A DNA stretch of 64,000 nucleotides, from NCBI RefSeq assembly GCF_003018115.1, contig NZ_CP027457.1; one strand, written 5' to 3'. Numbering within the stretch: position 1 is the first letter of the stretch; the number at the start of each line of letters is the position of its first letter. Origin of the DNA: Escherichia coli (GTDB lineage: Bacteria > Pseudomonadota > Gammaproteobacteria > Enterobacterales > Enterobacteriaceae). A program made the position numbers. Below, piece by piece: positions 12,901 through 18,900 of the stretch.

Positions 12901-15900
12901 ATCAAATAAAATAACGATAGGTCACAACAAAGAGGTTTTTATGAAAAAACTTATCGTTTCAAGTGTATTGGCATTCATAACATTTTCTGCGCAGGCCGCA
13001 GCATTTCAGGTCACTAGTAATGAAATAAAAACAGGAGAGCAACTTACAACGTCTCATGTATTTTCTGGATTTGGGTGTGAGGGGGGTAATACATCGCCCT
13101 CATTAACCTGGTCTGGTGCTCCAGAAGGCACCAAAAGCTTTGCCGTAACTGTGTATGATCCAGATGCGCCTACAGGCAGTGGATGGTGGCACTGGACTGT
13201 TGCTAATATTCCAGCAACGGTAACATATTTGCCCGCTGATGCAGGAAGACGTGATGGTACAAAACTTCCGACTGGTGCTGTCCAAGGCCGAAATGATTTT
13301 GGCTATGCGGGATTTGGTGGAGCATGTCCTCCCAAAGGAGATAAACCCCATCATTACCAGTTTAAAATATGGGCTCTAAAAACTGATAAGATTCCTGTGG
13401 ATTCTAATTCCAGCGGAGCGTTAGTTGGTTATATGCTTAATGCCAATAAAATTGCAACCGCTGAGATAACACCCGTTTATGAGGTAAAGTAGGATAAGAG
13501 TATGCTGGCAAAAGATAGGACTAACCTAAAGATTGAAGAAATACGGATGCATAAACATCATGAGATTCACAGGGTTAAGCCTCTTATGCCAGCTTTATGT
13601 CGTATCCGTCAGGGAAAAAAAGTTATCAATTGGGAGACGCATAGTCTAACTGTTGATAATAATCAGATAATATTATTTCCCTGTGGATATGAATTTTATA
13701 TTGCGAATTACCCAGAAGCAGGTCTTTATCTTGCAGAAATGCTTTATTATCCCATTGATCTAATTGAAAAGTTCCAAAATCTTTATGCGATAACCGATCA
13801 AATTCGTAACACGACAGGTTTCTGCTTACCTCAGAATCCCGAGTTAATATATTGTTGGGAGCAACTAAAAACATCTATTTCCCGAGGCTTCTCAACGCAA
13901 ATTCAGGAACACTTAGCAATGGGCGTTCTACTTTCATTAGGAGCACATCATGTTAATTGTTTACTTTTATCAGATAGTAAACAATCATTAATAAGTCGTT
14001 GTTATAACCTAATGCTATCCGAACCTGGAACAAAATGGACAGCAAACAAGGTAGCGAGATATCTCTACATTTCTGTTTCCACATTGCATCGCCGTCTGGC
14101 AAGCGAGGGAGTAAGTTTTCAAAGTATATTGGACGACGTGAGGTTAAATAATGCGTTGTCTGCTATACAAACGACAGTAAAACCCATCAGCGAGATTGCC
14201 AGAGAAAGTGGTTACAAGTGTCCTTCTCGTTTTACTGAAAGGTTCCATAATCGTTTTAAGATAACACCAAGAGAGCTAAGAAAAGCGTCCAGAGAGTAAA
14301 AGTATTTTATGAAGGAGCAACAGCATCGATTTTTATTTTGGAAAATAAATACGGCATACTCAACCTATTGGAGCCTGAACAATCCGGTGACTTCTGCGCT
14401 AATCGGGGACGTTTATAAGCACATATAATTGATACTATCTTCCTCCATCACAATTTCAGAAATGCACGTGTGATTTTTTTGCATCCGGCGTTTGGACTAT
14501 GTGGAGTTCAAGAGTGGGAAAGTTACAAGAGGTTGAGGGGATAATTAAAGGGATGCTTATGACATTAGATATCCGGTTAGGTACGGATATCGTTGTTATT
14601 AAATCTAATTGATACGTTAATTGTTCACTGAGTATTATTAAAAATGGGGCGTTGAAACGCCCCAGAAAATAAAGGGTAATATATAACAGAAGGTTTATAT
14701 AGTCAGAAGCAAGATAGTGCTTCTAAGGAAAGTGGTTTGAGGGCGCCACTTATATGTTGGGGAGGCAAAGCCTCCCACAACATATCTTTGAGTAATCAGA
14801 TTAGAACTGGTAAACCAATCCTACAGCAACGATATCATCGGTAGCAACGCCAGATGCTTTCGTGAAATCGCTCTTATCAATCAGGTTGATTTTGTAATCA
14901 ACAAAAGTGGACATATTTTTGTTGAAGTAATAGGTTGCACCTACATCAATATATTCAACCAGGTCCTGATCACCCCACGCACCCAAGTCTTTTCCTTTAG
15001 ATTGCAGGTAAGCAACGGACGGACGCAGACCGAAGTCGAACTGATATTGTGCAACTACTTCAAAGTTTTGTGCTTTGTTGGCAATATGGTTATTACCAAA
15101 AACAGTCATGTTCTGGGTTTCAGAATAGGTGGTAGCCAGATAGATGTTGTTCGCATCATATTTCAGACCAGCTGCCCATACTTCAGCATTTTGACCAGAT
15201 GCATTCAGGCTGTTGTTACCGTAGATAACCTGATCATTAGTGCGGTCAGATTTAGCATAGGTTGCACCTACACCGAATCCTTCATACTCATAAGTAGTGG
15301 AGAAACCGAAACCATCACCGTTAGCTTCAGTTACGTCAGTGCGGTCATTTTTACCCTGATACTGAGCAGCAAAGTTCAGACCATCAACCAGACCAAAGAA
15401 GTCGTTGTTACGATAAGTTGCAACACCTGTGGTGCGACCAGTCATGAACACATCTGTTTGGGTCCAGGTATCGCCACCGAATTCTGGCAGAACGTCGGTC
15501 CATGCACCGATATCGTATGCTACACCGTAGTTACGGCCATAATCGATGGAGCCGTAGTCACCGAATTTCAGGCCAGCGAAGGCAAGACGGGTTTTATCTT
15601 TGGAAGAACCTTGAGATTCAGCACGGTTGCCTTTGAATTCATATTCCCACTGACCGAAACCAGTCAGTTGATCGTTGATTTGAGTTTCGCCTTTGAAGCC
15701 CAGACGAACATAAGTTGTGTCGCCATCATCTGCATCGTTAGAAGAGAAGTAGTGCTTAGCATTAACTTTTCCGTACAGATCCAGCTTGTTACTGTCTTTA
15801 TTGTAAATCTCTGCTGCCTGAGCAGACATCGCCATCAGTACTGATGCAGCTACAGCAGAAATTGCCACTGTTAATTTTTTCATCGTGAGCCCTTTTATTT

Positions 15901-18900
15901 GAACTATTATTTAAAAATGATGTCACTGCACCACAAATATTCATCTAATCAATGAGATTATTTCAAGATGTAAGTTTTAGTTTCTCATTTAAATTGTGAA
16001 GTAGATCCCTATTTTTATCTGAACTGTTTCTATTGCACACAATGCATGACTATTTTGTGAACGAATATAAATTTGGTAGTCAAATTATATTAAAGGTTGT
16101 TATTTATGATTGACTCATAATTTATTTTTTTAATTTAAATAGCCTGAAAATAACTATAGAAATTATTTGTATGATATTTGTTTAGATTTATTAATGTAAT
16201 TTAGGTGGTTTTATTTAATACGCAATATAGCGCCGCTTGATATTAGTTCTATTTTTTTGCGTAAGATAGATGAGACAAAACTGAGACGCATAATGGTTTG
16301 CAAGGCTCTAATACTTTGATGTTGAGGATGTGATGGGGCATGTACGGGCATAGTACAATGATGTCCATGCAGGTGTAGATAATCTCCAGGCTTATCAAAC
16401 AGGTTGAATTAACGCTGCGCCCTGGTTTTTAACATTACCCACCGCGCGCGATACCGGGTGCCAGGAGAACTGGTTTGCTGGAACACAGCCACTGGCCGCG
16501 ATTTCTGAGGCTTCTTTACCGCTAATCTCTTGCCGCATCCATTCCCGCGCAGCTTCTGGCGACAGTACCAGTGGGCGGCGGTCATGAATATCTACCAGAC
16601 CTTGATCTGCCGCAGCAGTGACGATCAAAAATCCTTCGGCTTCGTCACCACGCTCAAATGGTGTGCTACCTATCGCGGCCATAAAAATAGGTTGTCCATC
16701 AGCACGATAGATAAAAAAAGGCTGTTTTTTGTCGCCTTCTTTTTTCCACTCAAACCAGCCATCGGCAAAACAGATTGCCCGACCATGTTGCCAGAGCGGT
16801 TTAAACATGCGACTGGTTGCGGCAGTTTCTACGCGGGCGTTAATCAGCGGCGGTTTATCCCACCATCCCGGAGCATATCCCCAGAAAACCGGATCCAGAT
16901 GAAGGTGTTCATCACGTTCACTGAGCAGAAGAACTTTGGTTCCCGGCGCGACGTTGTATCTGCTAATGGGTTCGGGATCGTAGGGAATATCGCGTTCAAT
17001 ATCTTCCGCGAGAAGCGCAAGGTAATCTTCACGCGTTTGGGATTGGGCAAAGCGTCCACACATAGAAACCTCCTGAGATCATACTGAAAAGAATAGGAGA
17101 GGGGGCGGGTAAAATCTATGTGTCAGAGGCAACGATGTTCCCGCTGTGGGCCACAGCGGGAATGAGGGATTACTTCTGAATTAAATAACGAATGGTCGGC
17201 CCGTCTTGCTGAATATCCAGCACCGTATAGCCGTGATTACGCGCATCCAGTGGAATATTATTGATCGACTGCGGACAGTCGCTCACCACTTCCAGGATCT
17301 CACCTTTTTTTAATTGCGGCATCGCCTCAAGAGTTGCGACTGCCGGATAAGGGCAGGGTTCACCCACCATATCAAGGCGGTAATCAGGAACGATATTTTT
17401 CATGCGATCTCCTTAGCAGTCTGCGGTGCCGCACGGCGGAAGAAGCGTTTTTCCCAGCCGATAATCAACATCAGCGCAGTAAACAACAGCAAATATGTCA
17501 CCAGCAGGCCACCCATCGGGCCAAAGGTTTTCAGCAGGTTTATTTTGTCCCAGTCGGTGGCCAGCGCTGGAGCGAAATCATCCCAGTAATACGCCAGAAT
17601 CGTTGAGCCGATCACATTGCCCAGACCGACCCACCAGTAGTGCACCTGGCCTTCTACCGCGCGGTACATCCAGCCGGTTTCGCAGCCGCCAGCCAGCACG
17701 ATGCCAAAACCAAACAGTAAACCACCAATTACCGCGTTTGGTCCCGCCCACATGATTTTGGGTTCAACGCCTAACTGTACGTAACTGAAGATCCCGATGG
17801 CACTCACCGCCATACCGATAATGATTGCTTTCGCCATATGAGTACGTCCGGTGATCCACATATCGCGGAACGCCGAAGTAAAGCAGATTTGCGCACGTTC
17901 AATCAGTAAACCAAAGCCGACGCCAAACAGCATTGCCAGCCCCAGTTTGGGTTGGTTCATCGCCGTGAGCAGCGCCCAGCCCAGCATGCCGAAAAAGACC
18001 AGCATCCCGAGACGAAAACGACGTCGCGCCTGATCCGGTTTTTGCGTCAGCGGTGAGGCGGCAGAAACTTTCTGCATTTTCACGGGAATACGGAAGATGG
18101 GCAGCAGGGTAAAGCGCGCGCCAAACCATGAACCAATGGCAGTGGCGATGGCAAAGAACCAGGCATGCAGCGAGAACTGAGGAATACCGGTAAAGAACGC
18201 CGCCAGGTTACAGCCCATTGCCAGACGCGCGCCAAAACCGGCGATAATGCCGCCAATGATGGCCTGCATAATGCGGATACGGCTGCGCGGCATTCGCAGT
18301 TTGACATTGTTGGCCCACAGCGCTGCGGCAAAGCAGCCGCCAAACATACCGAGGATCATCATCCCGTCGATGCGGGTTAATGGCGATCCTTCCAGATGGA
18401 TAATTTTAAAGTAACCCCACTCTTCAGCATGGACGCCGAACAGTTGCAGGAGCTGGCCGCCCCAACGGGTAAATTCACCCGTGACAGCCCAAAAGGTGCC
18501 AGTAATGCCAAAATAGTAAGTGGAGAGAATACCCGCCGCGATGACCGCGGGGATGGGCGCCCAGAATTTAATCAACCAGGCGTGTTTGAATTGCTGCCAT
18601 GACATGAATGTAGCCTCTGAACTCAGAAGGTTTGAAACAAGAGTCGCGAATCATACACCATGCAAATTTATTTTCGGGGTAATAATTCACAAAAATAATA
18701 GTTAGATCAAATTTCTCTCTGAACCTGGAAAGGCTGGCGACATCAGGGCTTTAATGCCACAATCCTCTTTTCTTCTCATGCAGGACGAATGATGAAAAAA
18801 CTCGCAATTGCAGGCGCGCTCATGTTGCTGGCGGGCTGTGCCGAAGTCGAAAACTATAACAATGTCGTGAAAACCCCCGCGCCGGACTGGCTGGCGGGCT

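Follow-up and report, generated by a model that had tools for sequence, protein, structure and literature searches.

The upstream region of lc, the porin gene of phage PA-2, was reportedly described by Blasband, Marcotte and Schnaitman in 1986, and PnmpC, the promoter of the nmpC porin gene in the cryptic prophage DLP12, reportedly by Coll et al. in 1994. A further member of this group lies in a 64,000-nucleotide stretch of Escherichia coli DNA (contig NZ_CP027457.1 of assembly GCF_003018115.1; the window, in what follows), in which an intact porin gene of the NmpC/Lc type (phage-borne, OmpD-like; 14801-15883, minus strand, 360 amino acids) is separated from its upstream same-strand neighbour, yedK (16395-17063, minus strand), by a gap at 15884-16394. 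This region is a known nmpC/lc-type phage porin promoter in a shortened chromosomal copy, and it is known in kind and largely in detail.

PnmpC of K-12, a sigma-70 type promoter, lies no more than 199 bp from the ATG and starts at a 'G'. Two operators serve its activation by CRP, OmpR, IHF and MprA act as its repressors, and a small RNA also takes part in its control (PMC11677980, which cites Blasband 1986 and Coll 1994). The PnmpC transcript is readily seen by 5' RACE (rapid amplification of cDNA ends) in the K-12 strain BW25113, and the promoter effect is lost when the corresponding 199 bp are deleted from K-12 (PMC11677980). Genomic SELEX (systematic evolution of ligands by exponential enrichment) has placed nmpC among the CRP targets (PMC3105977), and in NCM3722, a K-12 strain with an intact nmpC gene, NmpC amounts to ~2% of the proteome, falls in the carbon-limitation sector and has been termed, with OmpF, the major porin under carbon limitation (PMC8144880). 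Temperature also has a strong effect, since moving K-12 from 23 to 37 °C raises its nmpC mRNA 16.5-fold (PMC8544407), and in CFT073 both the RNA and the protein of c1560 and of c2348 are strongly favoured at 37 °C (PMC12890032). An nmpC gene of Shigella flexneri is anaerobically induced, partly via FNR (PMC4229854). Finally, the nmpC/essD spacer of K-12 is one of 78 'promoter islands' (576129_354), and carries the H-NS code 'A', meaning that it was bound in all the chromatin immunoprecipitation (ChIP) studies compared (PMC3661553). Multi-factor, conditional control, which a preliminary description of the window had suggested for the porin, is therefore documented for the homologous promoter (PMC11677980, PMC8144880, PMC8544407, PMC12890032).

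Origin and make-up of the porin-yedK interval

The gap was compared by megablast with 5,426 complete E. coli genomes. It is found in full in 1,499 of them, at 95-98% identity, and matches restricted to its first 329-338 bases (~81%) occur in hundreds of other genomes, where they are flanked by a porin gene and by essD, the holin gene, in lambdoid prophages. This part also has counterparts of 80-81.5% identity in 36 phage records, among them those of PA-2 (J02580.1), 434 and ev243, and the gene plus its upstream region are 85% identical to DLP12. A six-sequence alignment with a sliding identity count reveals that the identity to phage-type copies is graded, being 85-96% at 15884-16019, 65-80% at 16020-16219 and random beyond 16220. 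The homologue of 15966-16221 is presumably promoter island 576129_354, the positions having been carried across K-12 genome versions with an assumed shift.

In the matching phage records the porin gene lies backwards between the antiterminator gene Q and the holin gene S, and an AT-rich spacer of ~570 bp parts it from S in PA-2, 434, ev243 and the DLP12 prophage of K-12. This Q - porin (reverse) - S module is not kept at the locus studied here, where the S side is deleted and the neighbour is yedK. No similarity to DLP12, PA-2, 434 or the yedK flank of K-12 was found for 16222-16377, a segment that 1,554 E. coli genomes carry once each, in every case at the fliE/yedK locus and with 95-99% identity. 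On the other side, the alignment with the DNA downstream of yedK in K-12 is identical to ~16379 and breaks thereafter. We consider it very probable that the gap is a composite, and that at 15884-16221 the porin gene still has the regulatory region with which it arrived from a lambdoid phage. Next to these 338 bp of porin upstream DNA lie 156 bp of island-specific, non-coding junction DNA (16222-16377, 38-44% G+C), probably the far end of a decayed prophage, and 17 bp of core-genome yedK 3' flank common to K-12 (16378-16394, minus strand).

The surroundings of the gap have a similar history. E. coli CFT073 has a counterpart of the locus, 97.7% identical over 7.3 kb and with the same gene order (fliE, emrE, ybcL, ybcM, porin in reverse, yedK, yedF, yedE); the CFT073 orthologue at this locus is also annotated as a porin. 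The core DNA shared with K-12 extends to ~12243 next to fliE and begins again at ~16379 next to yedK. Between these points lie ~4.1 kb made up of four blocks with 85-92% identity to DLP12, a cryptic lambdoid prophage: emrE, ybcL-ybcM, the quuD 3' end, and nmpC plus 338 bp upstream. Since only these four DLP12-like blocks are present, the island is a heavily deleted DLP12-like prophage that has retained only accessory genes; of the quuD-like antiterminator gene only the 3' end is left, at 14516-14842. The porin itself is 90% identical to Lc of phage PA-2, the signal peptides being identical and the differences clustering in two stretches, and NCBIfam places it in the OmpC subfamily (520.8 bits vs a cut-off of 484). 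In the scenario that we propose, the prophage would have decayed to emrE-ybcL-ybcM-porin, and a deletion beyond -338 would have joined the promoter region to the yedK end, with the 156 bp of unrelated junction DNA in between.

The base composition of the gap is unusual for its surroundings, with 29.7% G+C vs 50.1% for the window as a whole. It is the lowest-G+C stretch in the 64 kb (0.29% of 511-bp windows are equally low, all of them overlapping this same locus), and it holds 12 A/T-only runs of 8-25 bp. The 338-bp core at 15884-16221 has 24% G+C, a value in the lowest 0.06% of 338-bp windows, and within it the distal tract at 16020-16221 has 22%; the values are 38% at 16222-16307 and 44% at 16308-16394. 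This unevenness means that the extremely AT-rich part measures ~340 bp, not 510 bp. The second-lowest G+C stretch in the window lies at ~47281-47970, where 511-bp windows reach 30.7% G+C.

The preliminary description had treated these ~510 bp as one extremely AT-rich regulatory region, devoid of open reading frames (ORFs) of 60 amino acids or more, upstream of a horizontally acquired porin. Its coordinates are exact, as ORF calls make 15884-16394 the entire porin-yedK intergenic interval. G+C windows and ORF calls likewise confirm an AT-rich stretch before the porin with no ORF of at least 60 amino acids inside the gap (the longest ORFs touching it have 49, 48 and 46), and horizontal acquisition is borne out by the DLP12-like remnant between fliE and yedK and by the 90% identity to PA-2 Lc. 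Extreme AT-richness holds for 15884-16221 and fails for 16222-16394. The AT-rich stretch can be regarded as the regulatory DNA of the porin itself as far as it is homologous to the nmpC/lc upstream regions, that is, over 15884-16221; the whole 510 bp cannot, because this homology ends at ~16221 and the remainder is junction DNA and yedK flank.

CRP site, core promoter and other regulators

The PA-2 record J02580.1 annotates CAP/CRP sites at 1363-1383 and 1067-1087, with the ATG of lc at 1492. Its proximal CAP site, ATAGAGATCTACTTCACAAAT, aligns gap-free with 15992-16012 of the window (plus strand, aattgtgaagtagatccctat), so that a cAMP-CRP site can be placed at 15992-16013, ~119 bp upstream of the porin ATG. 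The core of this site, TGTGA-AGTAGA-TCCCT (15995-16010, centre 16002.5), has two mismatches to TGTGA-N6-TCACA and is unchanged in 10/10 island-type copies. The 22-mer match is equalled in 1/300 dinucleotide shuffles and is the only motif above chance. Because the 16-bp core taken by itself is not significant (67/300 shuffles are as good), the call is based on the 22-mer together with the homology to PA-2. The preliminary description had held that no OmpR or other site was assignable; a CRP site is, by homology to the annotated PA-2 record. The distal CAP site of PA-2, GCTGTGTGACGAAGTAACCAC at ~-415, has no counterpart here, where the homology ends at -338.

A 23-bp block, AAAACTTACATCTTGAAATAATC, is invariant in all phage-type and island-type copies and contains the candidate -35 hexamer TTGAAA (15966-15961, minus strand). 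The candidate -10 hexamer GAATAT (15942-15937, minus strand), situated 18 bp downstream, is identical in K-12 DLP12, PA-2, phage 434 and a prophage copy and varies in 1/10 island-type copies; it fits the -10 consensus at 3/6 positions, including A2 and T6. G15931 and G15929, 6 and 8 nt past GAATAT, are both of the G residues conserved between the window and K-12. If transcription starts at G15931, the centre of the CRP site falls at -71.5, which is a class I position. The mRNA would then have a 5' untranslated region (UTR) of ~48 nt (15884-15931) with a Shine-Dalgarno sequence, AAGGG, at 15890-15894. This leader is AU-rich, with a folding energy of -7.4 kcal/mol (z = +0.95); an RNA thermometer in it was ruled out, the UTR being unstructured.

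We propose that a weak sigma-70 promoter, TTGAAA-18 bp-GAATAT, initiates transcription near G15931, and that cAMP-CRP bound at the class I site around -71.5 (15995-16010) would be required for its activity, so that the porin would be made under carbon limitation. OmpR would probably repress through a box overlapping the -35 element. A candidate for this box is CTTACATCTTGAAATAATCT (15955-15974, minus strand), which matches at 13/20 positions a sequence that we take to be the C1 box of ompC, a match equalled in 236/300 shuffles; the best OmpR box matches in the gap have 7 mismatches in 20-21 positions, and 177-236/300 shuffles are as good. As a candidate only, the overlap of CTTACATCTTGAAATAATCT with the -35 element would fit the OmpR repression listed for PnmpC of K-12 (PMC11677980).

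With regard to small RNAs, two sequences are complementary to GCCACUGC, which we take to be the 5' seed of RybB: CAGUGGC in porin codons 5-7 (15864-15870) and GCAGUGAC at the predicted 5' end of the mRNA (15922-15929). For E. coli, nmpC has been cited among the targets of RybB (PMC3333887).

Points against this assignment and alternative explanations

Several observations weigh against reading 15884-16221 as an active nmpC/lc-type promoter. All the functional data come from homologous copies, the activity of the island copy being deduced from them, and all the protein-DNA interactions proposed for it are likewise inferred, mostly from the K-12 and PA-2 promoters. A weak link is the equation of CFT073 c2348 with the orthologue of the island porin, which is inferred from the order of gene numbers; a literature search on the CFT073 locus tags c2346-c2350 returned irrelevant matches only. 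Homology is the sole basis for placing the transcription start near G15931. The candidate -10 hexamer is a weak one, and a stricter consensus promoter scan misses the TTGAAA/GAATAT promoter and selects 16200-16171 and 16093-16064 instead, two sites vs 3.3 ± 1.8 in shuffles. In addition, the distal CRP operator is absent, so that CRP dependence could be weaker here. Consensus scans of the gap for OmpR (C1, F1 and tandem half-sites), IHF, Lrp, Fis and FNR gave results at or below shuffle level, the high-affinity H-NS motif TCGATAAATT had no match within two mismatches and none above shuffles, and AA/TT periodicity, used as a proxy of curvature, gave no signal of helical A-tract phasing. The motif scan that the preliminary description had recommended for OmpR, H-NS and Lrp sites thus yields nothing better than chance in DNA of such composition. 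Finally, ~1,079 genomes keep the region without the porin, and retention alone is therefore no proof of function.

The alternative closest to the preliminary description is that of a quiescent foreign porin promoter silenced by H-NS, similar to those of ompS1/ompS2 and off without an antisilencer such as LeuO. This would agree with the 76% A+T over 338 bp (an extreme for the window), the phage origin of the porin region, the low expression at 23 °C (PMC8544407, PMC12890032) and the occupancy of the K-12 homologue by H-NS in all the ChIP sets compared (PMC3661553). Nevertheless, we regard it as unlikely, because the homologous promoter is active without any hns mutation, as indicated by the 5' RACE transcript in BW25113 (PMC11677980), by the ~2% share of NmpC in the NCM3722 proteome (PMC8144880) and by the presence of c2348 RNA and protein in CFT073 at 37 °C (PMC12890032). 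The absence from the gap of a high-affinity H-NS motif within two mismatches argues in the same direction, as does the fact that matches to a rough LeuO-like pattern occur at chance level only, and no paper was found in the literature that reports derepression of nmpC in an hns mutant. Of the earlier term 'H-NS-silenced', binding can be maintained on account of the K-12 homologue (PMC3661553), whereas silencing cannot, the homologues being highly expressed in hns+ cells. Binding of H-NS to the AT-rich upstream DNA is plausible from its composition and from the K-12 homologue: the protein probably coats this DNA, above all the distal tract at 16020-16221, and this coating may be one of the reasons why expression is low at 23 °C and induced at 37 °C. 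A specific nucleation site for H-NS is supported neither by helical A-tract phasing nor by a high-affinity motif.

Two explanations remain. In one of them the AT-rich DNA is a scar without function, most porin transcription being read-through from yedK on the same strand. No intrinsic terminator was predicted in the interval from yedK to the porin, the phage hairpin AAAAACCCGCTCGACGGCGGGTTT, ~440 bp upstream, has been lost here, and the ~1,079 genomes lacking the porin indicate that the region can persist without its gene, all of which would be compatible with read-through; but a scar would hardly retain 85-96% identity in its proximal 136 bp when the gene plus upstream region have 85% to DLP12, nor CRP site, -35 and -10 blocks conserved across copies, and in K-12 the 199-bp deletion abolishes the promoter effect (PMC11677980), which makes read-through very improbable as the main source of porin mRNA. 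The other explanation, that the gap conceals a small gene or small RNA, chiefly at 16211-16398, where there are minus-strand ORFs of 46 and 49 amino acids (elsewhere ORFs reach 20-26), seems to us scarcely credible. The segment is 95-99% conserved in 1,554 genomes, a level no higher than that of neighbouring DNA, and some phage records annotate a 'hypothetical protein' in the homologous spacer, but these vary in place and strand and have no counterpart ORF in the gap. Furthermore, the window differs from all other island copies by three 1-bp indels, which alter the reading frames, and CFT073 has a chimeric 62-amino acid ORF and one of 36 amino acids in place of those of 46 and 49, which were dropped as candidates since their frames are not conserved among copies. 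An Rfam scan of 12000-19000 at E <= 1 gave no match, and the 196 nt nearest to yedK have a folding energy no better than that of shuffled sequences (z = -0.26). The preliminary description, which had named an unrecognised small gene as a possible objection, is therefore upheld in finding none, the frames being broken by indels, Rfam empty and folding at shuffle level.

Distribution of the region and comparison with known systems

The population data add a second allele to the nmpC/lc-type promoter described above. Five non-B2 genomes with the full gap at ~96-97% identity lack the porin, 14621-15842 being deleted, and this allele keeps 41 bp at the start of the gene and all of the upstream region. 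A junction-spanning query detects it in 1,079/5,426 complete E. coli genomes, leaving ~420 (1,499 minus 1,079) with an intact island porin. In the porin-deleted genomes the orphan promoter points antisense towards ybcM. At the deletion junction of one such locus there is a short direct repeat, cgttgttattaaatct.

Compared with B2 strains, the window has 99.3-99.8% identity in the porin coding sequence and proximal promoter, 97.0% in the distal tract, ~97% in the junction, 94-96% in yedK and 97.6% in yedF-yedE, and these unequal values across the locus point to a recombination mosaic. Six substitutions and three 1-bp indels are private to the window with respect to nine other island-type copies, at 15932, 16146-16202, 16251, 16277 and 16345. 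The substitution at 15932 adjoins the proposed transcription start; five of the six are confined to a 57-bp part of the distal AT tract, four of them being GC to AT changes. A special excess of substitutions at 16146-16202 was considered and rejected, as the mosaic background explains it (the 97.0% of the distal tract is close to the 97.6% of yedF-yedE).

Outside the complete E. coli genomes, a one-genome-per-species scan with a conserved 21-mer returned only two contigs of metagenome-assembled genomes, labelled Bacillota and Lachnospiraceae. One of them is by blastn E. coli chromosomal DNA with the same island (98.1% over 4.2 kb), and the other appears to be coliphage-type DNA, as judged from the alignment only; both look mis-binned or contaminated. 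As the scan returns only E. coli or coliphage DNA, the promoter block appears confined to it at the level of the exact 21-mer.

Regarding the neighbourhood, the remnant spans 12244-16378 at the fliE/yedK site and carries emrE, ybcL, the AraC-like gene ybcM and the porin, together with the quuD-like 3' end; K-12 carries a different remnant at this site (intG, yedN, yedL). Two G+C-rich hairpins are found 3' of the porin stop, GGGGCG-TTGAAA-CGCCCC at 14646-14663 and TGTTGGGGAGGC-AAA-GCCTCCCACAACA at 14756-14783, in a region homologous to the quuD-nmpC spacer of DLP12; they may be the porin terminator, remnants of a phage late-promoter terminator, or both. yedK, identified by ORF call and by the CFT073 and K-12 annotations as coding for an SOS-response-associated peptidase, is annotated as frameshifted in strain 2A, the best match to the gap. 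In many genomes an IS200/IS605 element (a tnpA pseudogene plus TnpB/InsQ) directly follows the yedK stop, but no such insertion is present in the window at 16396.

Taken jointly, these observations admit a speculative extension, which we consider unlikely: that the island copy is a natural deletion experiment locating the temperature/H-NS determinant inside 15884-16221, that the orphan promoter acts in antisense or as an H-NS nucleation site, and that the porin is coupled to yedK. If c2348 is the island porin, 338 bp with one CRP site and no upstream hairpin would suffice for strong induction at 37 °C. In ~20% of complete E. coli genomes the promoter is kept as an orphan, the porin being deleted after codon 13, and there it could work as an antisense promoter under the control of CRP and temperature, or else as a site of H-NS nucleation with an effect on ybcM, ybcL and emrE. 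In the intact allele, read-through from yedK might couple porin expression to yedK transcription.

Of the known systems, the lc upstream region of PA-2 (J02580.1) is ~80% identical to the island copy over the 329 bp next to the ATG, and has the same proximal CAP site, -35 and -10 blocks, 5' UTR and start of the signal-peptide coding region. Unlike the island copy, it has a second CAP site ~415 bp upstream, a hairpin, and lysis genes beyond. PnmpC of K-12 DLP12 is 85-96% identical in the proximal 136 bp, and it is to this copy that the list of regulators, the temperature induction and the H-NS occupancy refer. In K-12, nmpC is broken by IS5 and belongs to a Q-nmpC-essD module, whereas the island porin is intact and located at fliE/yedK, and the island copy lacks the distal 230 bp of the DLP12 spacer, including the second CRP operator.

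More distant is ompD of Salmonella, which is activated by CRP and whose signal peptide is unlike that of the island porin. It belongs to a related porin family, NmpC being treated as its E. coli counterpart, and its UTR of 69 nt is tightly structured (PMC3333887), whereas that of the island porin, of ~48 nt, is unstructured. ompS1/ompS2 of Salmonella Typhi and ompN of E. coli are non-core porin genes that also have AT-rich upstream DNA. They show essentially no expression except on removal of H-NS or overproduction of LeuO. In contrast to these genes, nmpC-type promoters are strongly active at 37 °C and under carbon limitation (PMC8144880, PMC12890032). Compared with the 'promoter islands' of K-12, the gap has only 2 promoter-like sites (vs 3.3 ± 1.8 in shuffles).

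The fitting annotation is consequently that of an nmpC/lc-type porin promoter in which a class I site for CRP and a sigma-70 core are combined with an H-NS-bound, AT-rich tract upstream. A label as an uncharacterised silenced region is not warranted, and there is little significance beyond the correct annotation, with the census of the intact allele (~420) and of the orphan-promoter allele (~1,079 complete genomes) as a mildly useful by-product. Where the gene is retained, the porin would be expected as a major outer-membrane protein at 37 °C on poor carbon sources, and its expression is relevant to the permeability of such strains to antibiotics, to their sensitivity to phages and colicins, and to their antigenicity.

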